Of a DNA stretch of 57,475 bases, positions 12,682 through 47,252 are shown in pieces (positions within the stretch are counted from its first letter, which is position 1; each line of letters starts with the position of its first letter). This DNA is from an uncultured Gammaproteobacteria bacterium (GTDB taxonomy: Bacteria; Patescibacteriota; Microgenomatia; Daviesbacterales; UBA10151). The notes beneath the pieces were generated by a model, which searched no databases, was not told where the DNA came from, and saw nothing but the letters and a program-made list of their open reading frames with translations. A program made the position numbers and the translations under genes. The stretch covers positions 1-57,475 of the forward strand of contig CAZCNP010000003.1 of assembly GCA_964500725.1 (NCBI GenBank), written 5' to 3'.

Positions 12682-12715
12682 ATGTGCCACTTGGCTCCGT
12701 ATTCCTAGTCTTAAT
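12682..12715 (+). repeat. junction J2 (34 bp identical to J6)
   Basis: ATGTGCCACTTGGCTCCGTATTCCTAGTCTTAAT also at 19728-19761. Confidence 0.85.
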
Positions 12716-19720: not shown

Positions 19721-19857
19721 GTATATTATGTGCCACTTGGCTCCGTATTCCTAGTCTTAATCGAACTGGTAGTTTGAATTCAATTATAACAGCTTTTCAG
19801 AATCCAGTAGTTGTTGAGCTCAAACAAAGATGGGGAAGAAACAAAAAAGTTAAATAA
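19721..19857 (+). repeat. junction J6 with recombinase tail remnant
   Basis: GTATATTATGTGCCACTTGGCTCC matches 22935-22958 at 22/24; tail WLRIPSL...VELKQRW. Confidence 0.85.
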
Positions 19858-22934: not shown

Positions 22935-23081
22935 GTATATTAAGTGCCAATTGGCTCCTCAAGCCTTGACTTATTATACCCCCAAATTTTGGAGACTTTA
23001 TCAAATAAAAGTTACATGGGTGAACTTAGGCAAAGATGGGAAGAAATTAAGAAACTAAGAGATAATTACCAGTTCGCCTGA
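22935..23081 (+). repeat. junction J8 = attL of the intact element, carrying a 39-codon recombinase tail
   Basis: TGGCTCCTC shares core GCTCCTC with 34455-34461; open frame SLDLLYPQILETLSNKSYMGELRQRWEEIKKLRDNYQFA to TGA 23079-81. Confidence 0.8.
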
Positions 23082-23161
23082 TGTTTGTAGCTTCCATTGA
23101 ACATGGTATCAATTTTTTTAAATATTGACCAATTAATATCTTAAAGAGTAATATCCAGTTA

Positions 23162-23548
23162 GTGAATAAGGCCCACATCATAGCAATATATTTAGCTTTA
23201 GGAATTTTGGCATTATTTACTTTCTTTGGTAATAATCAAAACTCTGACCTAGACCAGATAAAAGACAGGGTGACAAAAGTTGAATTTTTCCAAGAAGCTA
23301 CAAGAGTTAGAGAGAATATTGTGGGATTTAAACAAGTAAATGCTTCCTTGGTAAATGATACAGAAAGAGCAAAGAGCTGTACTGAAAGTAAAGATTTATT
23401 AACTGAATGGACAGAAGATATAAAAAAGCTGGGCTTAGACTTTGGAACCTATATGACTAATCATCAAGAGGCTAAGGATTACTTTGATACAATCAGTAAA
23501 CTTAATGATGTTAATATTACTGAATGTAATAAGTTAACTAGCAAATGA
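23162..23548 (+). CDS. membrane-anchored hypothetical protein
   Basis: N-terminal TM, helical C-terminus with Cys pair. Confidence 0.65.
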   Translation: MNKAHIIAIYLALGILALFTFFGNNQNSDLDQIKDRVTKVEFFQEATRVRENIVGFKQVNASLVNDTERAKSCTESKDLLTEWTEDIKKLGLDFGTYMTNHQEAKDYFDTISKLNDVNITECNKLTSK

Positions 23549-25179
23549 CCAAGCTCAAGGTCTTAAAGTATTTACAGTGTATTATTCTTCTTTTAGTGCT
23601 ATTTTTCTCCTTTGTCCCCATAGTAGAGGCACGATCCTACAGAAGTTCTTTTTCGGATGTACATGTTAGGTCTTACTATCGAAAAGATGGAACTTTTGTC
23701 CAGAGTCATTATCGTTCTAGACCTGATGGAATTATCTCTAATAACTATTCCTGTATTGATAATGGAAGGTGTGGTGCAAATTACACATCACGAAGTTATA
23801 GCACTTACTCGTTTACCCTCCCTAGTAGTTATACTTATAAACCATCCTGGCTACCTGTACTTGCACCAGTAGGTTATGATTATGGAGGCTCAACCGAATA
23901 TACATCCTATACACAACCTGCACCCAAGATTACTCCACCAATCAATGCTCATTTGAATTACTTTGGTGACAGTTGGGTATGTGACAACGGTTATAAACGC
24001 AACTATCTGACCGATCAATGTGACAAAATTCAGGTTCCTTCAAACGCATATTTGGCATCGTGGGGAAGTGATTGGCTTTGCAGTACGGGATATAAAAAGA
24101 ATTATTTAACCGACCAGTGCGATAAAGTAAATGTTCCTGCGAATGGATTATTAAGCTACTTCGGGGATGATTTTACCTGTAATAGAGGTTTCAAGAAAAA
24201 CTATTCTACGAACCAGTGTGATCAGATTACAATTCCTGAAAACGCTAGTCTAAGCTATTTTGGTGATGACTGGACATGCAACTATGGCTTTAAAAAGAAT
24301 TACTCTACAAATAGATGCGACAAAATAGAAGTGCCTGCTAACGCTAGCATGTATAGTTGGGGTTCAGACTGGTACTGTAACAAAGGATTTAAGAAAAATT
24401 ACAACACGAACCAATGTGATCCTGTTGTAGTACCTGAAAACGCAAGCTTAGATTACTTCGGTTCTGATTGGAATTGTAACTATGGGTACAAAAAGAACTA
24501 CTCAACTAATAAGTGCGATAAAGTTGAGGTTCCAGCTAATGCGACTTTGTACAGTTGGGGATCTGATTGGTATTGCAATAAAGGATTTAAGAAGAACTAT
24601 ACTACTAATCAATGTGAACCCGTAGTGGCTCCTGAGAACGCAAGTTTGAGTTATTTTGGGGATGATTGGGTATGTAATAATGGCTACAAAAAGAATTATT
24701 CAACCAATAAGTGCGATAAAATAGAGGTACCTGCTAATGCTACCTTAAACAGCTGGGGTAGCGACTGGACTTGTAATTCTGGCTACCGCAAAAACTATAC
24801 AACCAACCAATGCGATAAAGTAGAATGTCCGGCTAACTCCTACGAGTCCTACGGCTATTGCTACTGTAATTCTGGTTATAAAAAGAACTATTCTAATGGT
24901 CAGTGTGAAAAAGTTGAGTGTCCATCCAATTCGTATGAATCCTATGGCTATTGTTACTGTAACAGCGGGTACACCAAAAACTACAGTACTAACCAATGCG
25001 AACCCCTTTACAAACCCACACCCTCACCTAGTCCTACTGTTCAAATAGTTACTCCAACACCAACTTCAATACCTACGCTGATCCCTAGTCCTACACCTTC
25101 ACCCACCCCACTAGTCACTTCAACACCAGAACCCACACCAGCACTATCACCCACTGTTACTCCAATGTCAAATCCCTAA
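23545..25179 (+). CDS. secreted Cys/Trp-rich tandem-repeat protein
   Basis: Signal peptide; VHVRSYYRKDGTFVQSHYRS domain; nine 33-aa P.NA....G..W.C..G.K.NY....C repeats and two 31-aa variants; Pro/Thr tail. Confidence 0.85.
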   Translation: MTKLKVLKYLQCIILLLVLFFSFVPIVEARSYRSSFSDVHVRSYYRKDGTFVQSHYRSRPDGIISNNYSCIDNGRCGANYTSRSYSTYSFTLPSSYTYKPSWLPVLAPVGYDYGGSTEYTSYTQPAPKITPPINAHLNYFGDSWVCDNGYKRNYLTDQCDKIQVPSNAYLASWGSDWLCSTGYKKNYLTDQCDKVNVPANGLLSYFGDDFTCNRGFKKNYSTNQCDQITIPENASLSYFGDDWTCNYGFKKNYSTNRCDKIEVPANASMYSWGSDWYCNKGFKKNYNTNQCDPVVVPENASLDYFGSDWNCNYGYKKNYSTNKCDKVEVPANATLYSWGSDWYCNKGFKKNYTTNQCEPVVAPENASLSYFGDDWVCNNGYKKNYSTNKCDKIEVPANATLNSWGSDWTCNSGYRKNYTTNQCDKVECPANSYESYGYCYCNSGYKKNYSNGQCEKVECPSNSYESYGYCYCNSGYTKNYSTNQCEPLYKPTPSPSPTVQIVTPTPTSIPTLIPSPTPSPTPLVTSTPEPTPALSPTVTPMSNP

Positions 25180-25246
25180 TAGAACACTCTTTACAGCAAA
25201 AAGTTGTTGTAAAAGTTTAATTTTAAGAGTAATATAATAAGCATTC

Positions 25247-25501
25247 ATGAAAAAATTGCTTATCAGTCTACTCCTTGGAGTCTTTGTTTTCTCTATCCTT
25301 ATTCCAACTGGCGTAGAGGCTGCTTCCAGAGTTAAAGGTTATACTAAGAAAAATGGTACCTATGTTGCACCCCACTATAAAACCCCACCAAATAAATCAA
25401 AATTTGACAATTTCAGTACAAAGGGTAATATCAATCCTTATACTGGTAAAAAGGGTACTGTAAATCCCTATAAATTCACACCCAAAAAATACAAACGATA
25501 G
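25247..25501 (+). CDS. small secreted basic protein (VKGYTKKNGTYVAPHY family)
   Basis: Signal peptide; homologous to N-domain of upstream gene. Confidence 0.75.
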   Translation: MKKLLISLLLGVFVFSILIPTGVEAASRVKGYTKKNGTYVAPHYKTPPNKSKFDNFSTKGNINPYTGKKGTVNPYKFTPKKYKR

Positions 25502-25570
25502 TTGCCCGAAAGCATTTATTTATCCTGTTATAAAGGGACTTAATATAAGAATTGGGTAAATTTATTTTAC

Positions 25571-26917
25571 TCAATTCTTCAAATTAGGTACTGGTAATTG
25601 AAGTGCAGATACAACTCCGTTCTCACAACCTTTTCGTACCTTTGCCATTTCTGTATTAAGATTTTCTAACTTTTCCTCTAACTTAGTAACTAATATTCGA
25701 TAATTTTCGCTTATCATATTTATCTCTACTTCAAGCTGTTGTTTTAAACCTAATCTTAAATCATTTTTCTTTATAACCTCACCTCTTATATTATCTACTT
25801 CCTCTGCTAGTGTGAGTTTACCTTTGCTTTCAAACTTCTCCCTTTGGAAGTACTTTCGAATATTGTTCAAAATGACTTCAAATAAGAATAATGCATTAAA
25901 AAGCAGTATTAAGACCAGAGATAAAACTACTTTTATGGGGCTAAATACAAATGCAAAACCACCGGTTTTCTGAACTTTCCTTATAGTGAGGGTAACACCA
26001 ACAATCAGGGGTATGAACATTAAGCGAAACAGAAAATCTAATAAATCCGTAGACATAGATATTAGAACCGCATAAAGAATAAGCAAAATTAATCCCACTA
26101 GGATCATTAAATAAACTTTAGGCTTATTTTTTCTGTATTCTGACGACTTCTCAAATAAATCCAGAAGTTGCTCTAGATAAATCAAATAGATAATAGCCAA
26201 CATTCCACTTGAAACATAAATTATCCATTCATTATTTTTGAATATAATCTTTAAAAACTCCCTAAATATATATAGGGATATTACATAGTCCCCTGCTAGC
26301 AATAAACCAATTAAAACAAGATACACATACCTCAATAAATCACCTTCTAATCTTTGTGTTGCTTTATTTAGAAATTCTATAGTTTTTTCTATTTTTCCTG
26401 AGAAAAAGTAGACTTTCTGACTTTTGTTTTTGCTGTCCTGCTCTAATCTTTCATTTTTGTCATCTTCTTCTCTTTTTAATTGAAACAGCTCTTCTTCCTT
26501 AGCTTTTAAAGTATGTTCTATTGCTTGGATTTCTTCTACAAGTTTCTTATCTTTATCCTCACATTCTTTAACAGCAGCTTCTTTTTTAAGTTTCGCTTCC
26601 TCTTTTAGAGAATTAGTCTGTTGTTCTAAACGACTCACTCTTTGATCGTAATCTTCACGATATACAGAAAGACCTACATTGAAGACCATATCCTTCACCA
26701 TTTTTACACGCTCTTCCATATTTTTTTGAGAATGAGGAGAGGTTAATATTTTTATGATTGGGTCATTAAATTTAATTGCAACCTTCTTACCAGTTTGTTT
26801 TCCATAACGGTCGTGTCTGGTATTGTATAAATAAGCCGATGCTGCTACCCCTGTCCCAGTAAAGAGAGTTGTTAAAGTAACAAAATTAGTTTGTAAAAAG
26901 TTAATGAGCTCGTTCAT
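25571..26917 (-). CDS. coiled-coil and multi-TM membrane protein
   Basis: Coiled coils flank ~5 hydrophobic helices. Confidence 0.7.
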   Translation of the reverse strand: MNELINFLQTNFVTLTTLFTGTGVAASAYLYNTRHDRYGKQTGKKVAIKFNDPIIKILTSPHSQKNMEERVKMVKDMVFNVGLSVYREDYDQRVSRLEQQTNSLKEEAKLKKEAAVKECEDKDKKLVEEIQAIEHTLKAKEEELFQLKREEDDKNERLEQDSKNKSQKVYFFSGKIEKTIEFLNKATQRLEGDLLRYVYLVLIGLLLAGDYVISLYIFREFLKIIFKNNEWIIYVSSGMLAIIYLIYLEQLLDLFEKSSEYRKNKPKVYLMILVGLILLILYAVLISMSTDLLDFLFRLMFIPLIVGVTLTIRKVQKTGGFAFVFSPIKVVLSLVLILLFNALFLFEVILNNIRKYFQREKFESKGKLTLAEEVDNIRGEVIKKNDLRLGLKQQLEVEINMISENYRILVTKLEEKLENLNTEMAKVRKGCENGVVSALQLPVPNLKN

Positions 26918-26923
26918 AGTTGG

Positions 26924-28129
26924 TTAAAAATTCTCAAAAACTAACTGGCATGATTTTAGTAGCTCACGGTAAAACTCCTGAACAGTCTGACGATAAGAAA
27001 AGTTATCACCATACTCCATTCCTACAATAATAAACCTACCACCTGGATTTTTACAAATAGGAGAACCATTTATTATAAGTTCTTTGTTTCTTTTTTTCTG
27101 AAGATAACTTTTAATCACGTCATAATCCTTGAGGGTCGAATATACTTCTTTACCCCCTGTGATTTCATCATCTCTAAGGGCAAACTCACCATCTGTAACT
27201 AAAAGGAATTCATAATTATCATATTTTTTGTTGACTATATCATCACTTATCTGAGTAAGATGAGGTATTAAATAAGTACCAGAATGACAACCAGTATTAG
27301 GATTTTTAATACCATTCTCCCAGAACTCCTTTATCTTCTGATAAATTACCTCTTCATCGTTAGTTGTAATTTCATTACCAACCTCTTTTACTTCGGAAGG
27401 CAATTTATCCCCTAATTCAATAAGTAACTGTTTATTCTTTTTAGCATAAATAATATTTGCATCCCATTCTGGTTCTGTGTATTTTATAACCAATTTATTA
27501 TTGCAGGGATTATCCTTGAAGTCTGGACCGTAAAAACGGACATTTATAGTATCGTTCGGCAATAAACCGTTATTGGAGGGTTCACGAAGATAATTTTTTA
27601 TTTTTTGGAATACTAGATCAGAATATTTATTTTCAGCTTTTTTTATAACTGAGTCCTTATCTCTGGTCACAACTGAATTAGAAATATCTAGCGAGATATC
27701 AACTAATCTTTTGTATCCTTGATCAATTCGGGGAAGCTTTAATTGACTATTCAGCCTATCGCCCTTTTTGGCTTCTGCAAGGATATACTTCTCTAAATGA
27801 GGGTTAACATTATCTCCCTTGAAATATTCTTCAAAAAATATCTCATTATTATCCCTCCTTTTTATAGTTAACTTCTCGCAATCCTCGCATTCATCAATAA
27901 CAAAACGATTATTTTTATTATTCGTATTTTTGCTTTTTATATCAATTTTTATATCCTGTAGGGTTACTTCTAAAGGTTCTTGGTTAAAATTCCTTACCAG
28001 TATAACTAGAGCCACAAAAATAATTATTCCTATCCCACCAAACAATAAAACTCTCTTCTCTATAAACGAAGACTTAGTTTTTATTGGCTTCTTCTTGGTT
28101 ACCTTGATTAAATTATTTTTATTATTCAT
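26924..28129 (-). CDS. membrane-anchored vWA-like domain protein
   Basis: N-terminal TM; DISNS (DxSxS-like MIDAS) and LLVTDGE. Confidence 0.55.
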   Translation of the reverse strand: MNNKNNLIKVTKKKPIKTKSSFIEKRVLLFGGIGIIIFVALVILVRNFNQEPLEVTLQDIKIDIKSKNTNNKNNRFVIDECEDCEKLTIKRRDNNEIFFEEYFKGDNVNPHLEKYILAEAKKGDRLNSQLKLPRIDQGYKRLVDISLDISNSVVTRDKDSVIKKAENKYSDLVFQKIKNYLREPSNNGLLPNDTINVRFYGPDFKDNPCNNKLVIKYTEPEWDANIIYAKKNKQLLIELGDKLPSEVKEVGNEITTNDEEVIYQKIKEFWENGIKNPNTGCHSGTYLIPHLTQISDDIVNKKYDNYEFLLVTDGEFALRDDEITGGKEVYSTLKDYDVIKSYLQKKRNKELIINGSPICKNPGGRFIIVGMEYGDNFSYRQTVQEFYRELLKSCQLVFENF

Positions 28130-28203
28130 TGTTATTATTTATATCTTACATGTTATTATAGCCAGATTAGAACCAGCTTGAATAGGCTTTTATTCACCTG
28201 TAC

Positions 28204-28380
28204 CTAATTAGAGTTTTTTAAAAACTTCTCTATATCTTCTTTTTTATAGCGCCTATCTCCTCTAGTGCTAACAATCACAGCCTTTAATTTCCCTAAACGA
28301 TCCCATCTTCTAAGAGTTTCGGGATTAACACTTAACATCTCTGCTACTTCTTTGATTTTTAAAAGTCTAGTTTTAACCAT
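28204..28380 (-). CDS. MerR/excisionase-type HTH protein (58 aa)
   Basis: MVKTRLLKIKEVAEMLSVNPETLRRWD..G.L...RGDRRY; not in ORF track. Confidence 0.85.
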   Translation of the reverse strand: MVKTRLLKIKEVAEMLSVNPETLRRWDRLGKLKAVIVSTRGDRRYKKEDIEKFLKNSN

Positions 28381-28459
28381 AATTATTAGACTTAATTATA
28401 CATCTAGTTTTTCAAAAGTTAAGGAATGTTAAAATATAACATAGATAAGATACAACAAT

Positions 28460-29008
28460 ATGGAAAAAAATAAAGGTGGTAGACCACCAACAACAGAAGA
28501 AACACTTGATTTGTATTTGCGGAAACTAGAACCATTCCTAAAGAGTGGTCAGACGCTCTATAGAGCTTGTCTTAACACCCAAATTCCATATAGGACAGTT
28601 AAAGATTGGTCCGATAAAAGTGAGGGGTTTTCGCAAAAAATAGATGCTTTTTTAAGCTACACAGCTAATTTAATTAATAACCTACATTTTAGTAGATTAG
28701 TTGGTATTGCAACAAAGCAAAGTAAAATGCAGGAATTACTAGCTGATCTAAAAGCCGGAAAGATAAAAAAAGAAGATTTTGATAAGCTATGTGCAGATTA
28801 TGAGATATCTGATAAAGAGTGGCAATTTATAGCATGGTACGCTACCCACTCGTATTCCACTAGAGAGGACTATGGACAAAGGATAGATCGTATTGAAGAA
28901 AATCCACAACCATTAACACCTGAAGCAGACACAAGAGAAGTAGCAGAATTATTGCAGGCTATTCTTCATAAAAATGATGCTCCTGAAGAAAAAATTGTTA
29001 TAAGCTAG
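28460..29008 (+). CDS. hypothetical protein, terminase small subunit-like N-terminal HTH
   Basis: GGRP...G.TL..AC....IPYRTVKDW pattern. Confidence 0.45.
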   Translation: MEKNKGGRPPTTEETLDLYLRKLEPFLKSGQTLYRACLNTQIPYRTVKDWSDKSEGFSQKIDAFLSYTANLINNLHFSRLVGIATKQSKMQELLADLKAGKIKKEDFDKLCADYEISDKEWQFIAWYATHSYSTREDYGQRIDRIEENPQPLTPEADTREVAELLQAILHKNDAPEEKIVIS

Positions 29009-29261
29009 TTAGCTCATTCATGGAAACTCCAAGCGCTTTGGCAATCTTCCACATAACAAAAACTGTGGGATGGTATTTCCCAAGCTCTAAATGACCAACA
29101 TAAGTAAGATGGAGTCCAGCCTTTTCTGCTAACTCTTGCTGGGTCATTCTTTTGTTTTTCCTTACCTCTTTTAGTCTCTCGCTGAGTAATCCGGTAAATT
29201 CTCTTCTTAATTTCTTATTCTCGTTCTCATCTTTAGGAGTTTTGAACTGTAAAGTACCCAT
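28998..29261 (-). CDS. XRE-family HTH regulator
   Basis: MTQQELAEKAGLHLTYVGHLELGK..P. Confidence 0.92.
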   Translation of the reverse strand: MGTLQFKTPKDENENKKLRREFTGLLSERLKEVRKNKRMTQQELAEKAGLHLTYVGHLELGKYHPTVFVMWKIAKALGVSMNELTSL

Positions 29262-29349
29262 GCCTCTAATTTTCTAGCGTAGACATAGTTTTATATATAG
29301 CGTACTTATCTAAATATTGTTATAATTGATATAGACTCATTTACTATTT

Positions 29350-30045
29350 ATGGCACTTCTACCTTTTACAGAGGAACAAAAAAGTAAAATTAAAGAGGAA
29401 GAGGATGAAGACTTAAGAAGGCAATTGAGGTCTTTTACTTCTAAAACTAATCAGAAGCATGGTGTACCTGCAATTTTGTCATTGTTTATTCCTGGACTTG
29501 GACAAATAGTAAAGGGGCAGACTGGAAAGGGTATCCTAATCCTTATTTGTACGCTTATTGGCTATTTCGTGTTTGTTGTTCCCGGACTCATTATTCATAT
29601 CTGGCAAATTGCTGATGCATACAATAATAACAAGATATCGGATAATGAAGACAAACCAAAAAGTAAAGTTAAGTGGCTTGGTTTAATTTTGATTACGCTT
29701 ATTATCTTACTCCTTAGCTTAGCGGGTAAGTATTCTAGTGGCACAACAAGCAAAGAGAGCTTCCAAGATTTATCAAGAAAAAGATTTGATGGTATATTAG
29801 CTACATCGCCTGAACTAGAAAGTATTGAATGTTTAGATGGAAATTGTACATCTGTTGTGTATTTTAACTTTAGGAAGTTGCCTGATGATTTAGAGTATAT
29901 GATTAGAGCCAATACTGTAACTTTCTCAAATTTTAAATACGAGAATACTGGAACAAGTAATATAAGCATATTTGCGACATATAACGGTAGCACTCTGTTA
30001 CAATGCGATGGTGGTCAAGGAAAGGTAAAAGACTGCAAAAAATAA
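29350..30045 (+). CDS. membrane protein
   Basis: AILSLFIPGLGQIVKGQTGKG motif; several TMs. Confidence 0.7.
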   Translation: MALLPFTEEQKSKIKEEEDEDLRRQLRSFTSKTNQKHGVPAILSLFIPGLGQIVKGQTGKGILILICTLIGYFVFVVPGLIIHIWQIADAYNNNKISDNEDKPKSKVKWLGLILITLIILLLSLAGKYSSGTTSKESFQDLSRKRFDGILATSPELESIECLDGNCTSVVYFNFRKLPDDLEYMIRANTVTFSNFKYENTGTSNISIFATYNGSTLLQCDGGQGKVKDCKK

Positions 30046-30063
30046 AAAAGAATTACCTTATGT

Positions 30064-31005
30064 ATGAACGGATTATTTGTTTTACTGTTTATAATCTCCC
30101 TGATACTGTTTCCTATAGCAGTTATTAAGCCAAGTTTTGTTGCGAAAGTAACAAAACATACATTTACAAGATTAAGAATTGGATCACTCTTAGGAATAGT
30201 AACATTGGCACTATTTATTTTAGTAGGAGTAACTGCACCACCAAAATCTACAAATAACATTTCAGTATCTCAAGATCAACAAGTAAAGGAAGCATCTAAG
30301 CAACAGGTAGGAGTTAATGTAGAAGATAAAAGTAAAGAACCGGAAAAAGCCTCACCTACACCAGCGTCATCTTCGCAAACAAATCTTTATACTGTTACTT
30401 CTGTTATTGATGGAGATACTGTTAAAGTTACCCTGGGCAGTGAGCAGGAAACCCTGCGTTTAATAGGCATTGACTCACCGGAGACAGTAGACCCTAGAAA
30501 ACCAGTCCAGTGTTTTGGTAAGGAAGCCTCTGCAAAAGCTAAAGCATTACTTTCCGGTAAATCCGTAAGGCTTGAGGCAGACCCAACACAAGGTGAAAGG
30601 GATAAATATCAAAGGCTTCTTAGGTATGTTTTTTTAGAAGATGGGACTAGTTTTAATAAACTAATGATTTCAGAAGGATATGCTCACGAATATACTTACA
30701 ATGTACCTTACAAATATCAGGCTGAATTTAAACAAGCACAGAAAGAAGCAGAAGCAAATAAAAGGGGTTTATGGGCTGATGATGCTTGTGGTAGACCGCA
30801 ACCAACTACAAATGTTAGTTCTTCGGGCAATACAGGAGCTTCAGGGGGATCTTCTGGTAATAGTGGCGGTTTCACTTGTGCAGGTAAGACTTTATGTGGT
30901 CAGATGACTTCTTGTGCAGAGGCTAATTTTTACTTAAATACATGCGGAATAAGTAGATTAGATGGCGATAAAGATGGTGTTCCTTGTGAAACACTTTGTA
31001 ATTAA
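30064..31005 (+). CDS. thermonuclease (SNase) with C-terminal excalibur Ca-binding domain
   Basis: VIDGDT, RLIGIDSPE, DKYQRLLRYV; LDGDKDGVPCE. Confidence 0.92.
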   Translation: MNGLFVLLFIISLILFPIAVIKPSFVAKVTKHTFTRLRIGSLLGIVTLALFILVGVTAPPKSTNNISVSQDQQVKEASKQQVGVNVEDKSKEPEKASPTPASSSQTNLYTVTSVIDGDTVKVTLGSEQETLRLIGIDSPETVDPRKPVQCFGKEASAKAKALLSGKSVRLEADPTQGERDKYQRLLRYVFLEDGTSFNKLMISEGYAHEYTYNVPYKYQAEFKQAQKEAEANKRGLWADDACGRPQPTTNVSSSGNTGASGGSSGNSGGFTCAGKTLCGQMTSCAEANFYLNTCGISRLDGDKDGVPCETLCN

Positions 31006-31097
31006 ATCACTGCAACTGTTGCAGGAATACTTGATATTTATTTCCATTAAAATACAATAAGTCCACTCTAAAAGTTTGGAGCAAATATAAAGATAAA

Positions 31098-31955
31098 ATG
31101 AGTATAAACAATCAAACCAGTTTGGGTTTTAAGGATCTTATACAAATTCTTCTACAAACCCAAATGGATTATAAATGGTTTAGCGTAAGGAAAAAACTAA
31201 ACTATGAAAAAGCCTTATTCCTCCCTATTAGCAAAGAATTTACTAAAGATATTTTATCAATCAAAGAAGAATTTAATGTACCAAAATTAAGCCCAGACAA
31301 GGACTACATTTTTATTGAGGGTGCTGGAATTGAGATTGAGGACTCAAATTGGCTTAGCGTAAAACCCAAAGAGTTTATAAACAGATGGGAAGCATGCATA
31401 ACGGAATTGCTTCATAAATATAAACTTCCTGTAAGTTTCATAGATTGGGTGGAATGGAATATTCTTTATGGAAAACCTAAAACTTATCCTAATTACAACA
31501 TGGAGACATTTTTAGAAATAATAAGATATCCCCAAGAAGCAAATAGAATAGGTTTAACAACGGGTGAGAAGAAACTAATGCTGGAACTACTGAGGTTTGT
31601 AATCAAATCCACAAAAGGTAAACGAAGGACTACTTTAAAAAAATCATTTGTACAACTGGAAGAGATAATTAAACAAAGCAAAAATCGGAGGCGTGGGATA
31701 AGAAGCTTAAAAACATCCTTAATCGCATACAACAAACCAGAAGTTGAAACATATCACGATACAACTAAGGGCAGTCATGGAGAAGATGTAACAAAACACT
31801 ATTCATATAGGAAACTGGTTTCTGACCATTTTGATATTGATACTGAAGACGATAATGAGTTTGAGGAAGAAATAAATAAAAATGCAGCAAAGTTAAGAAA
31901 ACAAAAGGAAAGACTTTTAAAACGCCATATTCAGCCTCAAAAAGTTGAAAATTAG
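31098..31955 (+). CDS. hypothetical protein
   Basis: 285-aa ORF. Confidence 0.7.
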   Translation: MSINNQTSLGFKDLIQILLQTQMDYKWFSVRKKLNYEKALFLPISKEFTKDILSIKEEFNVPKLSPDKDYIFIEGAGIEIEDSNWLSVKPKEFINRWEACITELLHKYKLPVSFIDWVEWNILYGKPKTYPNYNMETFLEIIRYPQEANRIGLTTGEKKLMLELLRFVIKSTKGKRRTTLKKSFVQLEEIIKQSKNRRRGIRSLKTSLIAYNKPEVETYHDTTKGSHGEDVTKHYSYRKLVSDHFDIDTEDDNEFEEEINKNAAKLRKQKERLLKRHIQPQKVEN

Positions 31956-32123
31956 TGTCACTTTTTCCATTTTAAGCTCCTGTAGACTAGTGCTTAATGA
32001 GTATCAATATTAAGGATAAGCAAAAACATCAATTAGAAATGGTTGCAGAACAATGGGTCAATATAGTATTCGCCCATTTACAGCATAAAAAGCAATTCCT
32101 GATCAAAAAGAATAAAAATAACT

Positions 32124-32369
32124 ATGGAAAATAATAAAAACATCTTTTCTACTGACTCATTTGTTCTAGCAAGTTACCTCCTTTGTGAGTCATTAAAACT
32201 TACATCTATAAATAGGGATAATCCCAAGAGAATGATTTTTGTATTTGAAGACTCCACACAAAGGAAACTATTGATAGAGCTTTTCTTTTCATATAAAGCC
32301 CGAGTTGAACCTAATCGGTTCTATTCAGCTCAGAGAAATTTGAAGCAGATGATTTATCAAAATAAATAG
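32124..32369 (+). CDS. DUF5659-like protein
   Basis: FSTDSFVLASYLL...DNPKRMIFVF...VEP..F pattern. Confidence 0.65.
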   Translation: MENNKNIFSTDSFVLASYLLCESLKLTSINRDNPKRMIFVFEDSTQRKLLIELFFSYKARVEPNRFYSAQRNLKQMIYQNK

Positions 32370-32393
32370 TAAAAATTAGTAATAAAAATAAAA

Positions 32394-32732
32394 ATGAATA
32401 TGGGCAAATTTAGAATTAATCAGATAGCATTACGCAACATTGTTTGGAGGGCTCCTGAATACCCTTTAGCAGCGAAGGTGCTCTTACTTGACCTTCTTTG
32501 GTATGCAGGTAACAGTAATTCCGCCTTTCCCTCTCAAAAGACCCTAGGGAAAAACCATGGTTTAAGCTCCCGTTATGTAAGGAAAATGCTCAAATTACTA
32601 AAAGAGTATGGCTGTATAACTTGGAGAAAATCTGGTTTTTCAAAAAGCAATCATTATACTTTCAGCACAGATTTATATGGTGTTATCAATGAAACAATCA
32701 ATGAGGAACAAACAGATGAGGGAACAAAATGA
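32394..32732 (+). CDS. HTH replication-initiator-like protein (possibly truncated)
   Basis: AFPSQKTLG...LS.RYV...LK.L...G.I...SNHY wHTH. Confidence 0.7.
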   Translation: MNMGKFRINQIALRNIVWRAPEYPLAAKVLLLDLLWYAGNSNSAFPSQKTLGKNHGLSSRYVRKMLKLLKEYGCITWRKSGFSKSNHYTFSTDLYGVINETINEEQTDEGTK

Positions 32733-32929
32733 GTAAGGAATTATTGTTCCTCCAACTAGAGGTATTAAAGTTCCTATTCATAAAGGAACAAGGAAACCGA
32801 CTAATGATAATCAGAACTAAAGATAATCAAATTAAAGATAGTCAGGATTATCTGAAAGATAATCCCTTCAACGAGTATGCGTTGAAGGATGCTGGTTTAC
32901 CAGCATCAATCCTTGTAGGAAAAGTGTAA
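32729..32929 (+). CDS. hypothetical or C-terminal fragment of replication gene
   Basis: ATGA overlap; GGAAC/GTTCC repeats. Confidence 0.3.
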   Translation: MSKELLFLQLEVLKFLFIKEQGNRLMIIRTKDNQIKDSQDYLKDNPFNEYALKDAGLPASILVGKV

Positions 32930-32968
32930 AATATAATGTATAATTAAATATAAGTAATAAACATAAAT

Positions 32969-34507
32969 ATGAAGAATTGTTATATCTATTTAAGAGTAAG
33001 TACAGACGAGCAAGCCAACGAAGGTTTCTCTTTAGATAACCAGAAACGCTCCTGTTCAGACTACGCCCAAATGTGTGGGTACCATATTAAGAGGGTATTT
33101 GAGGATGGCGGTAAAAGCGGTAGAACAACAGATAGACCAGCTTTTCAAGAGTTGTTAACCCTACTCCAAGAAAGCCCAGTAGATGCAGTTATTATTTATA
33201 AAATTGATAGATTTGCCAGAAATGTTGGGGATTTCTCCGGAATAAGGAAACAGTTTAAAAACATGGGCGTTAAGCTCCTCTCTGTATCCGAAAATGGTGA
33301 TGTGACCGAGGGTTTAATAGGAAATATCTTTGCTTCTGTTGCGGAGTGGGAGTCAGAGGTAAATGGACAAAGGACTAAGGATGCTTTAATGCAGAAATTT
33401 AGGGAAGGTTGGCAGCCAACCCCTCCTCCACTTGGCTATATAAGCATTGGCGGAGATCGAGAGAGAAAAACTTGTGAACCGGATCCATATGTAGCATCTA
33501 TTGTCAAGGAAATGTTCGAGATTTATGCTACAGGGAATTATTCAATCCTAGAACTCCAAGAATGGCTCAGTAATAAAAATTTGGTTTCTAAATCAGGGAC
33601 AGGACTCGGACATAGCGTAATCTGCAATATTCTAAATAACCCTTTCTACTACGGTCTAATACGCTGGAAGGGTGAGTCAAAGATAGGAAAACATATCCCC
33701 ATTATTACTAGGGATTTGTTTGAAACCTGCCAGTATGTTTTAGCAAAGCACAGAAACTTTTTAATGAGACGCAGAGTCCACGATTTCCTTCTTAGAGGGT
33801 TTATCTATTGTGGTGAGTGTGGTCAAAGATATACCGCTGAATGGCATGTAGATGCGGTAAAACTTAAGAAACGAGGCGGAAAGATAGGATATTACCATTG
33901 CAAGAAATTAGGCAGAAACGGCTGTCCTGCCCCGTATGTGGAGCTAGCAGACTTAGAAAACCAAACTATGGAAGAATTTAAAAAAATGCAATTTAGCCAA
34001 GAATTTATAGATGCTGTGGTCCGCAAAACTAAGGAACGCTTAGAAAACACCCGCAAAACCGCAGCTTCTTTAAAACAAGGCATGATAAACCAAAAAACAG
34101 CTTTTGAAGCTAAAAGAAGCAAGCTTGAAGATGCTTTATTAGATGCGACTATAGACCGAGATACATTTAAAAGAAAACACTCAGAAATTCAGGATAAAAT
34201 CCTCAATCTAGAGGCTCAAATACAGGAGATTGATGCTGAGAGCCAGATAGATATTGAGCTTATTGATGAAGTTCTAGCTTTTACTAGGAATATTTATCAA
34301 ACTTACTCTGAAGCCCCAGATTTTCTAAAAAGGCACTACCTCAGGTTCTTTTATGAAAAGATAATTGTAAGAAATAAAGAGATTATAGAAGCAACGCCAA
34401 CTCCGATTTTCGCATCCCTGCTTGCTAATCAGCAGGTTATAATAACAGACTTGAGCTCCTCGACCTGGATTCGAACCAGGAACCTGCCGATTACATTTTA
34501 CCCTTAA
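32969..34507 (+). CDS. large serine recombinase
   Basis: YLRVST catalytic Ser, KIDRFAR, recombinase domain, CGECG zinc ribbon, coiled coil; 3' end runs antisense into tRNA-Asn. Confidence 0.95.
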   Translation: MKNCYIYLRVSTDEQANEGFSLDNQKRSCSDYAQMCGYHIKRVFEDGGKSGRTTDRPAFQELLTLLQESPVDAVIIYKIDRFARNVGDFSGIRKQFKNMGVKLLSVSENGDVTEGLIGNIFASVAEWESEVNGQRTKDALMQKFREGWQPTPPPLGYISIGGDRERKTCEPDPYVASIVKEMFEIYATGNYSILELQEWLSNKNLVSKSGTGLGHSVICNILNNPFYYGLIRWKGESKIGKHIPIITRDLFETCQYVLAKHRNFLMRRRVHDFLLRGFIYCGECGQRYTAEWHVDAVKLKKRGGKIGYYHCKKLGRNGCPAPYVELADLENQTMEEFKKMQFSQEFIDAVVRKTKERLENTRKTAASLKQGMINQKTAFEAKRSKLEDALLDATIDRDTFKRKHSEIQDKILNLEAQIQEIDAESQIDIELIDEVLAFTRNIYQTYSEAPDFLKRHYLRFFYEKIIVRNKEIIEATPTPIFASLLANQQVIITDLSSSTWIRTRNLPITFYP

Positions 34508-34760
34508 TTTACATCAAGGAATGGACTATCTCTTCACCATAAACTTGATTCTGGACAAGCCAGAACGACATATTTTTAGGTGTGGGGCGCTAATTGGTGT
34601 ACTCACCTAGTCTCTGCACCTTCCCCCCGCCTTTGGCAGGGGTCTTGGCTCAGGATTACCTCTAAAAGGGTTTCCTGAATTCACCCCATTCTCATTCTTA
34701 GCTTTTGCCAAGAAGCTGCATTTTCTACAGTCGGACGCTCTACCGTTGAGCTATCGAGGA
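34456..34760 (-). tRNA. tRNA-Asn(GTT) split by a group I intron (exons 34727-34760 and 34456-34493)
   Basis: Joined exons form a 72-nt cloverleaf, TCCTCGA/TCGAGGA acceptor, loop CTGTTAA; CCA not encoded. Confidence 0.9.
34494..34726 (-). ncRNA. group I intron (IC3-like), 233 nt, between anticodon positions 35 and 36
   Basis: Exon-terminal U; terminal G; IGS GCAG pairs CUGU; AATTCAGGAAAC, AATCCTGAGCC, GCAGAGACTAG and AAGAGATAGTCC core. Confidence 0.9.
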
Positions 34761-34763
34761 ATA

Positions 34764-35459
34764 TTAAAGTACGTCAGCTATTTTACCACCCAATAAAGCC
34801 GAAATCCATCCTATTATTTTTCTTTGCTTATCACTATCGCTAAAACGAATCGCAAAAACACCATACTGGTGGATATTCTTTCTAATTTTCTTGCTGTCTT
34901 TTTTATCTTTTGCTATGTAGGTTTTATGAAATTGCTCTTCAGGAATACCAGTAAGCTTTGACCAATATTGTTTGGCAACTATATCATCCAGGCCTTGATG
35001 TATCCAAATTGCTCCTCTTAATTTTGTCATTGGCAAACGGCAAAATTCCTGGAACCATTTACTCATAAACTTAATTAAAATAGGATCCGAATTTACAAAT
35101 CCACCCTTTCCGTCATTTTTAAAACCTTCTCCCGAGTAAAGAGCTACCCCAGCTATGAAGCGATCTCTTTTTGATAATTTACCTAACTCTTTTTTCGCAT
35201 CCTTAAAAATAACCCTTGTTCTTGCTAATCTTGCCCTTCTTTTATTATCAGCTGCTACAATCGAACCCTTTCTTTGCCCAAACATTTTATTCTCCAGAAG
35301 CTGTCTTTTTTGATCTTGTGTGAGCTTGATATCCCGACACCATCTGCTAACAGTATCTTTTGAAACATGAATTTGCTGCATTATTTTACCGTAAGACAAA
35401 CCTTTTTTACGTAGCGATTGAGCTTTAAACTTTTCCTCTAGCTTACCTACATACCCCAT
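34764..35459 (-). CDS. HTH plus LAGLIDADG-like protein, tRNA-adjacent
   Basis: N-terminal HTH (GLSYGKI...VSKDTVSRW); ALYSGEG.K...FVNSDP; stops 3 nt before tRNA-Asn. Confidence 0.6.
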   Translation of the reverse strand: MGYVGKLEEKFKAQSLRKKGLSYGKIMQQIHVSKDTVSRWCRDIKLTQDQKRQLLENKMFGQRKGSIVAADNKRRARLARTRVIFKDAKKELGKLSKRDRFIAGVALYSGEGFKNDGKGGFVNSDPILIKFMSKWFQEFCRLPMTKLRGAIWIHQGLDDIVAKQYWSKLTGIPEEQFHKTYIAKDKKDSKKIRKNIHQYGVFAIRFSDSDKQRKIIGWISALLGGKIADVL

Positions 35460-35563
35460 ATTTACATTATCAAATTAGGACTAAGTATTGTCAAGTATTT
35501 ATTACTAGAGATGGTAATACGATTTGAAATATAATAAATTTTATCACCTATCCTGTCCATATC

Positions 35564-38806: not shown

Positions 38807-38896
38807 TGGCGGTGGGAGAGGGATTCGAACCCTCGGTAGACTTACGCCCACACGATCTTTCCAGGATCGCCGGTTAAACCACTCCCGAATCCCACC
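38807..38896 (-). tRNA. tRNA-Ser(GGA)
   Basis: GGTGGGA acceptor, CTGGAAA loop, long variable arm, GCCA end. Confidence 0.95.
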
Positions 38897-39924
38897 TTCG
38901 TCCTTAATCTATGCGTTTTTTGGTTTAAATAATAATTAAATTTTTTCCAATTTTTTGGATTATGCGATCCAATCAATTTAAAGTATTTTTTAATTTCCTC
39001 AAAACTATAAATATAAATCTGCGTTTCTTTCTTTGCAAAGGAAAATTTTAATCCTAGTGATTTTAACACTTTTGCTACAGATTGAACAATTGGAAGAGAT
39101 TTGTTTGTAAAACACATCCCAAAATTTTTATAAATCAAACCATTCGCTTTATGCTTATGAAAATAACAACCGCCATCCGTGTCCATCAGACCTCGCACAC
39201 AAGCTTTTTGAAATTCCGTTCTCTTCCATATCCATTGGGGAAAATCAATCTGGTGCCTAACTTTATTCCCTCTCACAAAACCCCATTTTTCTAGTTCTTC
39301 AACCAAATTAACCCCAGAAATTGTTAGATCAATTGCATTACAATTATTGCGCTCATGCGAACTTGGCCTGCAATCAAAAACCCTCTCAAACAAGGAAGAA
39401 ACAGCTAAGGAATATTCTTTATCCACTAGACTACTTAAACTAATTCTAAGTTGATTGTTAGAGATTGCTCCATCTCCTAAGATTATTCCAGCTACTTCTG
39501 CAAAATCCACTGAAGGGTTAACGACTTTAAATTTATTGCGAGTATTACACCCTAGTAGTCGATATTTTTCTGGATTTTCTTTTCTTCTGAGTTGAGAGTT
39601 CTTACCACCTTTACTCCTACCTTCAATAGTCCCAGGCGGGCCATAAAGTTCTAGTCTTTTTAGGGCTCCCCTCCTAGCTCCTTTTACTGTATACCAATAA
39701 TCATTTACTATTTGTATATTCGTGGGAGTTTCTAGATTGAAATGCTTGGCTAGAATTGATAAAGCTTTTTCAGAAATATGATACTTTCCTCTTAACCAAT
39801 CCCTCATCGTACGTCCAGATACCTGGCATAACGAGCCTAATTGATTACTGTTTAATTTTGATGATAATTTAACTTCTCTTAGGAAATGTGTTTGCTCTGA
39901 ACCCTGGAAGATAACTCTACCCAT
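38842..39924 (-). CDS. LAGLIDADG homing endonuclease-like protein with N-terminal HTH
   Basis: VAGIILGDG and VRGLMDTDG motifs; 3' end overlaps tRNA-Ser by 55 nt. Confidence 0.88.
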   Translation of the reverse strand: MGRVIFQGSEQTHFLREVKLSSKLNSNQLGSLCQVSGRTMRDWLRGKYHISEKALSILAKHFNLETPTNIQIVNDYWYTVKGARRGALKRLELYGPPGTIEGRSKGGKNSQLRRKENPEKYRLLGCNTRNKFKVVNPSVDFAEVAGIILGDGAISNNQLRISLSSLVDKEYSLAVSSLFERVFDCRPSSHERNNCNAIDLTISGVNLVEELEKWGFVRGNKVRHQIDFPQWIWKRTEFQKACVRGLMDTDGGCYFHKHKANGLIYKNFGMCFTNKSLPIVQSVAKVLKSLGLKFSFAKKETQIYIYSFEEIKKYFKLIGSHNPKNWKKFNYYLNQKTHRLRTKVGFGSGLTGDPGKIVWA

Positions 39925-46831: not shown

Positions 46832-47252
46832 GGGGATGTATTGTCTCGACAGGATTGCTCTTTAAAAACTGCAAGCTGATAAGGAAACATTAATCATTAA
46901 ATATTGTTTCAAAACACAAACGGCAAAGATATTGCCCGTTACCTGAAGCAGGCAGCTGCTAAGATCGCAGGAGCTAATCCATTCGTGGGTCCGCAACTCG
47001 CTTTCCAACCAGCTTACAGCTAAAGGTTGCTTTAGAAAATGTTCTCCTTCTGACGGAACACTAAAGTACGTACAAAGTCAGGATGCTGCTGGTAAGGTGT
47101 TGGTTGATCCTTGCTAGTAAAAGACAATTCAATCATTCATTAGTTTTCCTGCTAATTGGTTACAACTATTGAATAAAAATTAATTAGCTAAGCTTGTAGA
47201 GGTTTAAAAAGTTACAATTTTGGACTCGGCTTCACCGCCGACATCTCCACCA
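46832..47252 (+). ncRNA. ssrA: tmRNA
   Basis: GGGGATG/CATCTCC-ACCA acceptor with G3-U; TCGAC; internal tag ORF 46922-47023; convergent smpB; TTGATT-N17-TAATAT promoter. Confidence 0.9.

Follow-up and report, generated by a model that had tools for sequence, protein, structure and literature searches.

A group I intron in the anticodon loop of a Patescibacteriota tRNA-Asn gene that shares its locus with other mobile features

Results

The split tRNA-Asn gene

The stretch of DNA analysed here (the window) comprises 57,475 nt of contig CAZCNP010000003.1 (assembly GCA_964500725.1) from an uncultured bacterium placed by GTDB in the Patescibacteriota, and its subject is a tRNA-Asn(GTT) gene on the minus strand (34760-34456), into which a 233-nt group I intron is inserted between U35 and U36. 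The organism is represented by groundwater metagenomes only, and the assembly totals 1.21 Mb in 15 contigs, with a completeness of 99.3% and a contamination of 0.19%. It is very probable that the locus holds a single tRNA-Asn(GUU) gene divided by an anticodon-loop group I intron devoid of an open reading frame (ORF), and that two separate mobile features share the site. The parts of the gene are as follows.

34727-34760, minus strand: tRNA-Asn 5' exon (ARAGORN intron mode and sequence; same exon in 30 related loci)
34494-34726, minus strand: group I intron, 233 nt (Rfam, ARAGORN, covariation in 26 homologues and minimum free energy (MFE) fold)
34456-34493, minus strand: tRNA-Asn 3' exon (ARAGORN intron mode, sequence and related loci)

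The 5' exon (TCCTCGATAGCTCAACGGTAGAGCGTCCGACTGT) supplies the 5' strands of the acceptor and anticodon stems, the D arm and loop residues C32, U33, G34 and U35. The corresponding 3' strands lie in the 3' exon (TAATCGGCAGGTTCCTGGTTCGAATCCAGGTCGAGGAG), together with U36, A37 and A38, the variable loop and the T arm. The 5' exon ends in CTGT and the 3' exon starts with TAATCGG, and the joined loop CTGT/TAA (a slash marks a junction here and below) carries the anticodon GTT. The spliced gene is 72 nt long, and its two exons together fold as a canonical tRNA in ARAGORN. The discriminator is a G at 34456, and CCA is not encoded after the 3' exon in the present context. No ORF is found within the 233-nt intron.

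Two programs agree on this assignment. With introns allowed, ARAGORN reports tRNA-Asn(gtt) at c[34455,34760] with i(35,233) and the junction 'actgt-Intron-taatc', and the Rfam model Intron_gpI (RF00028) matches 34502-34737 on the minus strand with 85.2 bits (E 2.6e-20, model positions 1-253), against a gathering score of 50 bits. An earlier sequence-only reading had placed a group I intron at position 35/36 of tRNA-Asn(GTT) and proposed a covariance search with a group I model as a check; the search upholds that placement, and the coordinates, the 233-nt length, the junction, the U·G pair, P7 and the terminal G given there all agree with the sequence. Its expectation that standard scanners would miss the gene is also borne out, the locus being called neither by ARAGORN at default settings nor by the Rfam tRNA model. 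No second tRNA-Asn gene is found in the 99.3%-complete assembly by ARAGORN with or without intron mode. As the sole tRNA-Asn gene of the assembly it must yield a working tRNA, and splicing must consequently be efficient if AAY codons are to be decoded.

Structure and proposed splicing of the intron

The helices of the intron are as follows.

34716-34730, minus strand: P1 (invariant U·G and covarying next pair in 26 homologues)
34695-34714, minus strand: P2 hairpin, intron 13-20/25-32 (6/6 aligned pairs compensatory; MFE fold)
34583-34688, minus strand: P3, intron 39-45/138-144 (RNAalifold, covariation and MFE fold)
34523-34614, minus strand: P7 pseudoknot (invariant in 26/26)
34502-34519, minus strand: P9 hairpin, intron 208-214/219-225 (6/7 pairs compensatory)

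In P1 the exon residues CUGU (34730-34727) and intron residue A1 pair with intron residues U7-G11 (UGCAG, 34720-34716), so that U35 forms a wobble with G8 at the 5' splice site. P3 encloses P4 (49-54/72-77), P5 (58-61/65-68), P6 (78-80/107-109), P6a (85-92/96-103) and the 5' strand of P7, and an extra hairpin (120-123/128-131) lies between this strand and the 3' strand of P3. P7 itself is formed by G113, a bulged A114 and G115-A119 (GACUA) (34614-34608) with U199-C204 (UAGUCC, 34528-34523), and its span contains P8 with a long P8a (145-192), 3/4 of the P8 pairs being compensatory. P9 is followed by GUAAAAUG, which terminates in the omega G, the last base of the intron (34494; intron 3' end AAAATG). 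The single-sequence fold (z = -4.28) yields helices that match P2-P6a, the extra hairpin, P8/P8a and P9. A strain variant seen in metagenome runs X5/X6 carries small deletions, about 20 nt in all, in P8a only (34542-34573) with the core untouched.

This architecture suggests the following order of events. The precursor would be transcribed from the minus strand, and CUGU together with the first intron base would pair with the internal guide UGCAG to give P1. An external guanosine held in P7 would attack after U35 of the U·G wobble, and the terminal G (34494) would next occupy the G site. The anticodon stem would keep the exons together throughout, and ligation would restore the loop CUGUUAA.

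Conservation across the family

The comparison set consists of 96 genomes of the same family, in which related loci were found by DNA search; 26 loci with a split tRNA-Asn and 4 with the intact loop CTGTTAA were fetched. About 40/96 genomes carry the intron (a reading of the 54 genomes matched by pattern search, with G039 added and with fortuitous matches and another tRNA type of identical P1 taken out) and 36 have an intact tRNA-Asn, with both states represented inside the window's own genus. The homologous introns (26/26) are 180-265 nt long, begin after CTGT and have G as their last base before TAA, and on alignment they fall into at least four sub-lineages at the single tRNA-Asn site.

RNAalifold on the 26 sequences recovers P1, P2, P3, P4, P5, P6a, P8, P9 and the anticodon stem, with compensatory changes at 29/41 pairs. 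When P6 and P7 are added, the share of cells that pair is 96.4% versus 75.9% in shuffles, and the covariation score is 0.575 versus 0.189 in shuffles and at most 0.133 with partners slid by 1-3 columns. The splice-site U·G pair and P7 show no variation in 26/26 homologues, while the P1 pair adjoining the U·G covaries (AU 10, CG 8, GC 4) and the anticodon stem is 100% paired and covarying. Taken together, the Rfam E-value, the fold z-score and the covariation in 26 homologues exclude chance, and the covariation pattern reads as the signature of a functional ribozyme maintained by selection.

These data also bear on whether the intron could be a decayed relic that no longer splices, leaving tRNA-Asn as a pseudogene and Asn decoding to a gene outside the assembly. 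Splicing is predicted and the assembly lies in 15 contigs, both of which leave room for such a relic, but with a completeness of 99.3% the assembly yields no other tRNA-Asn, all core helices are intact, compensatory changes preserve their architecture in 26 genomes, and the two exons give a canonical tRNA fold. We therefore regard a relic as highly improbable, and retain the reading of a split but working tRNA-Asn gene.

Some calls in the relatives required reassignment. ARAGORN labels of Thr, Asp, His, Gln or Leu are splice-site miscalls, all of these genes being tRNA-Asn with the arrangement CTGT/...G/TAA. Separately, six genomes with an intact tRNA-Asn (G038, G054, G059, G064, G080 and G091) contain another tRNA-like 5' exon that ends in CCCTGT and is followed by a P1 partner (e.g. 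AGAGCGCATCCCTGTAGAAATGCAGC); it probably belongs to another tRNA, for Asp, Tyr or His, that is interrupted at 35/36.

Relation to published tRNA introns

Four classical cases of tRNA introns (Leu, Arg, fMet and Ile2, listed as IC3) are given by Williams 2020 (bioRxiv 10.1101/2020.01.27.920355), whose seed alignment also holds Pam37.Asn.4Ug, Wba81.Asp.4Ug, Mba143.Tyr.4Ug and Mpe6.Lys.4Ug. The sequence-only reading had referred to Asn/Asp introns at 35/36 and judged the class probably not new, and this judgement is borne out. The present intron is hosted by tRNA-Asn(GTT), follows the fourth loop base, and has U at -1 and G at omega, and Pam37.Asn.4Ug is like it in its tRNA-Asn GTT host, U35/U36 site, U at -1, omega G and core blocks. 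Three such blocks (GGGTGAATTCAGGAAAC, GCAGAGACTA and GAGATAGTCC) and the extra hairpin after P7 are common to the present intron, Pam37.Asn.4Ug and Dba165.Lys.2Ug. The periphery departs from that of the Pam37.Asn.4Ug seed: the P1 loop is short here, nothing is inserted after P2 and P8a is long. Identity to the seed is low outside the core. Judged by these shared features, the intron is a further member of the published type Asn.4Ug and not a new class.

The IC3 introns of Anabaena tRNA-Leu(UAA) and Azoarcus tRNA-Ile(CAU) are likewise small, ORF-less and located in the anticodon loop, with P1 drawn from loop bases. They share with the present intron a P2-P9 core without P5abc and the J6/7-P7 and J8/7 sequences, and in all of them the exons are held together by the anticodon stem. 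The classical introns differ in their tRNA and loop position (34/35 in Leu, 36/37 in Ile and Arg), and the extra hairpin after P7 is present here but not in Azoarcus or Anabaena. Moreover, splicing has been demonstrated for the Anabaena and Azoarcus introns, whereas it is predicted for the present one. The core similarity to published tRNA introns makes an IC3 label plausible.

A cassette gene upstream of the tRNA

Directly 5' of the split tRNA-Asn lies a second feature of the locus.

34764-35459, minus strand: 231-aa gene with an N-terminal helix-turn-helix (HTH) and a conserved C-terminal domain, which stops 3 nt before the tRNA
35466-35494, minus strand: sigma-70-like promoter match (TTGACA-17-GATAAT, 11/12; a consensus match only), which precedes the 231-aa gene

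Pfam and NCBIfam return a weak N-terminal HTH for the protein and nothing else. Relatives of the protein number more than 500, none of them named, and come from Daviesbacteria, Roizmanbacteria and other Patescibacteria, and its orthologues are well conserved (60-90% identity). At a cut-off of at least 55% identity, orthologues are present in 12 genomes of the family and truncated remnants with stop codons in 2, and all 14 lie directly 5' of an intron-bearing tRNA-Asn, with none in the 36 intact-gene genomes (Fisher p = 2e-4 for the association, uncorrected for phylogeny). About 26 of the roughly 40 intron-bearing genomes are without the gene. It is absent from G004 and G092, and a population variant in runs X5/X6 has 24 nt in place of 34765-35520. 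The gene is found with all four intron sub-lineages, and its nearest relative (85%, in G058) stands beside a very different intron. Presence/absence polymorphism combined with decayed copies is the behaviour of a selfish cassette. A comparison of the trees of the 231-aa protein and rpoD was uninformative, the loci being too short, and rpoD too conserved, for the purpose.

More distant paralogues (25-39% identity) were sampled at 20 places (among them loci L038-L055, in genomes G005, G029, G049, G057, G068, G074, G075, G078, G081, G088, G090, G092 and G095). At least 17/20 immediately precede another tRNA gene in the same orientation, often with an overlap (Arg-TCT 7, Gln-TTG 3, Met-CAT 2, Val-GAC 2, and Ile-TAT, Gly-GCC and Trp-CCA), and no introns are called in these linked tRNAs. 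The 3 paralogues with no tRNA directly downstream comprise 2 with a group I intron facing them from the other strand and one (L049) located just downstream of tRNA-Val(TAC). Invariant across the paralogues are E111-G112-x-K114 and N123-x-x-P126. Several paralogue frames end inside the tRNA (e.g. tail APVAQRIEQVNSNH). At the present locus the final ~28 nt of the 231-aa gene (34761-34790, GGTGGTAAAATAGCTGACGTACTTTAATAT) are kept before tRNA-Asn even where the gene is missing (G004: GATGGTAAAATACCAAGCGTACATTCACAT), and TGGTAAAAT resembles an extended -10 box, which suggests that the tRNA promoter may lie inside the 3' end of the 231-aa gene.

The sequence-only reading had described an upstream endonuclease-like gene. 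That the gene is real, conserved and cassette-like is substantiated by the distribution above, while no sequence or fold test placed its product among nucleases, and endonuclease activity is accordingly treated here as a hypothesis. The 231-aa protein has no Pfam or NCBIfam match to a LAGLIDADG sequence family; among ten paralogues the best match to a nuclease family is one to LAGLIDADG_2 (E 0.045); hhalign against the LAGLIDADG_3 protein of the window (38842-39924) gives nothing; and PDB sequence and profile searches give nothing. A full-length AlphaFold model (predicted local distance difference test score, pLDDT, 85), in which a helix terminates at the invariant E111-G112, has a weak match to I-DmoI (E 0.09, prob 0.95, template modelling (TM) score 0.28-0.36). 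A model of the C-terminal domain (pLDDT 84.5) matches OmpA-like folds and IspF first (E at least 1.2e-3, TM at most 0.43), and no LAGLIDADG enzyme is among its top 50 matches.

Collaborative homing offers one account of this cassette. Here the 231-aa protein would be a free-standing homing endonuclease with intron-less tRNA-Asn alleles as its substrate, cleaving in or close to the anticodon loop; the ORF-less intron would shield the essential host gene, and repair would copy the cassette together with the intron 38 nt downstream. Such partnerships are described for F-CphI with the ORF-less psbA intron of cyanophage S-PM2 and for T4 mobE with the nrdB intron (PMC3984707; PMC2790892). The restriction of the 12 orthologues and 2 remnants to intron-bearing tRNA-Asn, with 0/36 at intact genes and the same Fisher value, fits this account, as do the cassette behaviour (absence from G004 and G092 and the X5/X6 variant), the company of all four intron sub-lineages with the G058 relative beside a divergent intron, the model helix ending at E111-G112 and the presence of I-DmoI among the weak fold matches. 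Against it, Pfam, NCBIfam, hhalign and PDB profile searches identify no nuclease family, the domain model prefers OmpA-like folds and IspF with no LAGLIDADG in the top 50, about 26 of some 40 intron-bearing genomes lack the cassette, and at least 17/20 paralogues stand 5' of uninterrupted tRNAs, which argues that an intron is not generally needed for immunity. Unlike the F-CphI and mobE systems, in which the partner is a nuclease, a nuclease is hypothesised here, and the present locus further differs in belonging to a cellular genome, involving an essential tRNA and having paralogues beside uninterrupted tRNAs. On balance we hold collaborative homing to be possible but doubtful, and only tentatively entertain the corresponding view of the 231-aa protein as a homing endonuclease with an unrecognised variant of the fold and of the intron as immunity device and hitch-hiker.

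The same protein could instead be a host factor tied to tRNA genes, acting as a regulator of transcription or processing or as a splicing helper (maturase) and not as a selfish nuclease. Its N-terminal HTH, the 60-90% identity of its orthologues, the consistent position of paralogues 5' of various tRNA genes (same strand, often overlapping) and the promoter-like site, which would allow co-transcription of gene and tRNA, all point in this direction. The patchy distribution, with clean presence/absence within one genus and one population, and the decayed remnants speak against it, and an obligatory maturase is excluded because most intron-bearing alleles lack the gene. A host-factor role is likewise possible without being probable, and a tRNA-linked regulator is equally open beside collaborative homing, which the distribution fits.

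A serine-recombinase element at the tRNA 3' end

The other end of the tRNA gene abuts an integrative element with the following components.

32969-34507, plus strand: large serine recombinase gene, 512 aa (Pfam)
about 22959-34455, no strand assigned: tRNA-proximal integrative element, ~11.5 kb (attachment (att)-like junctions and comparison with G092)
22944-22965, plus strand: attR-like junction, in tRNA sense ...CTTGAGGAG/CCAATTGGCACTTAAT, made up of P arm, tRNA-end GGAG, CCA and B' arm

The recombinase contains the Pfam domains Resolvase (6e-33), Recombinase (1e-12) and Zn_ribbon_recom (1e-9); its best likeness in NCBIfam is to CcrB/XisF, with every score far under the family cut-offs. The last 52 nt of the gene are antisense to the tRNA 3' exon and reach 14 nt into the intron. 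Seen from the protein, the frame crosses the junction and the last 17 codons (34456-34507, STWIRTRNLPITFYP) are antisense to the 3' exon and intron end; integration therefore sets the C-terminal tail of the enzyme.

The attL-like junction at the tRNA 3' end reads ...GGTCGAGGAG/CTCAAGTCTGTTATTATA on the tRNA side, i.e. GGAG/CTCAAGTCTGTTATTATA, and the copy at 22944 reads ...TATAATAAGTCAAGGCTTGAGGAG/CCAATTGGCACTTAAT in tRNA sense (attR also given as TATAATAAGTCAAGGCTTGAGGAG/CCAATTGGCAC). The element arms P and P' are inverted repeats, and the outer arm starts with CCA and resembles the native 3' flank of tRNA-Asn in G081. The motif GTGCCANTTGGCTCC occurs three times in the window (12684-12698, 19730-19744 and 22944-22958) against an expectation of 0.17, and each copy reads GGAG/CCAAnTGGCAC in tRNA sense, that is, the tRNA-Asn end, CCA and flank. 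On this pattern the copies would mark successive recombinase junctions, those at 19730 and 12684 being older and further out. A left end at about 28205, where homology to G092 stops, was replaced by 22959, which has an att-like junction; 28205 is taken as a module boundary. No direct repeat of the tRNA 3' half that could serve as an att duplication is found in the window, which fits a serine recombinase.

Comparison with G092, a genome of another genus, supports the same picture. Over its right-hand 6.2 kb (28208-34485) the element shares 91-94% identity with one that adjoins the tRNA-Asn of G092 and has a recombinase of 94% identity, and the homology ends at the tRNA discriminator; the acceptor stem and intron sub-lineage are different there, and the neighbouring rpoD/dnaG are just 72% identical. 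Five more genomes have recombinases of 23-56% identity immediately at the 3' end of tRNA-Asn and reading towards it. Unrelated DNA follows tRNA-Asn for 8 kb in G081 and 2.7 kb in G004, after which shared chromosomal genes resume that match the end of contig C4 of the present genome; as these flanks differ, the tRNA-Asn 3' flank is hypervariable family-wide. The 401-aa gene at 26924-28129 has its sole homologue in G087, on another contig than tRNA-Asn.

The tRNA 3' end forms one half of the target of large-serine-recombinase elements, with the present element inserted directly after the discriminator base. The earlier claim that tRNA-Asn is an integration target is in this way supported by the att-like junctions and the comparative data from G092 and other genomes. 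The recombination site lies ~35 nt away from the 3' splice site, and alleles with differing introns carry related elements; we see no functional connection of the intron with integration, which can be explained without it. Stacked islands such as the staphylococcal cassette chromosome (SCC; CcrA/B/C) and tRNA-targeting elements with large serine recombinases have the same Resolvase/Recombinase/Zn-ribbon layout, and SCC-like stacks resemble the present locus in site-specific insertion at one conserved gene end, where repeated junctions suggest successive insertions. The present element is unlike SCC in its tRNA 3' end target, its host from the candidate phyla radiation (CPR) and a recombinase frame that runs into the tRNA.

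Four genomes from four genera (G015, G025, G068 and G045; loci L006, L020, L028 and L030) have the same 18-nt 3' flank of tRNA-Asn, CCAGATAGTTCTTACTCG, i.e. CCAG(A/G)(T/G)AGTTCTTACTCG, which is present with or without the intron. The genes beyond it differ (a nucleotidyltransferase with a toxin-antitoxin pair; a Fic protein), and no integrase lies within 1.5 kb.

Other features of the window and genome

Outside the window, the genome contains a further interrupted tRNA gene, tRNA-Thr(GGT) at C1:293890-294121, with a 158-nt insertion after U36 (TTGGT/aattgc...aaagcg/AAGAACG). The insertion has U at -1, a terminal G and the group-I-like blocks GAGACCG and GATACAGTC, and it is not matched by the Rfam group I model at a cut-off as loose as E 0.01. 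Other group I hits of the genome, considered as tRNA introns, are located in 16S and 23S rRNA genes instead. These matches (C4:158-356 and C11:8000-9150; 26-35 bits, below threshold, at contig ends) are probable rRNA introns. Introns in rRNA genes have often been reported for CPR bacteria.

Within the window, a 360-aa protein with an HTH and Pfam LAGLIDADG_3 (E 1.5e-8) is encoded at 38842-39924 (minus strand), and its reading frame ends in the first 55 nt of tRNA-Ser(GGA) (38807-38896) on the same strand; G092 keeps a 65%-identical copy. A transfer-messenger RNA is encoded by a standard one-piece gene at 46832-47252 (plus strand, Rfam 106.7 bits).

Discussion

Several observations weigh against the reading of the locus as a split, working tRNA-Asn gene with separate mobile features at its ends. 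First, the anticodon stem is mismatched at U27/C43, a mismatch that is identical in the intron-less allele of G025. Secondly, no clear P10 pairing was found between the 3' exon and the guide region. Thirdly, a search for RNA runs that cover the locus found none, and splicing, the junctions used in vivo and any need for a protein are points that we infer from the sequence. Finally, as regards the element, neither an empty attB nor an excised circle is found among the contigs of four metagenome runs, and the outer boundary of the island is one that we infer from repeats and a single cross-genus comparison.

Taken by itself the intron is unremarkable: it adds a very well supported example to a published class. 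It nonetheless carries a practical warning, since a split gene of this kind makes default tRNA scans report CPR genomes as being without tRNA-Asn. The family sample (about 40 genomes with the intron, 36 without, four sub-lineages, one site) is a resource for studies of intron gain and loss, and its introns offer small natural ribozymes for biochemistry.

The role of the cassette protein is a more interesting question than the intron. Three independent mobile layers (the intron, the 5' cassette and the 3' serine-recombinase stack) are found on one essential 72-nt gene. If the cassette were to encode a nuclease aimed at the intact anticodon loop, this would explain the spread of ORF-less tRNA introns among bacteria and would be a case of collaborative homing directed at an essential tRNA of a cellular genome, and the paralogous family would then constitute tRNA-gene-specific selfish nucleases in Patescibacteria.

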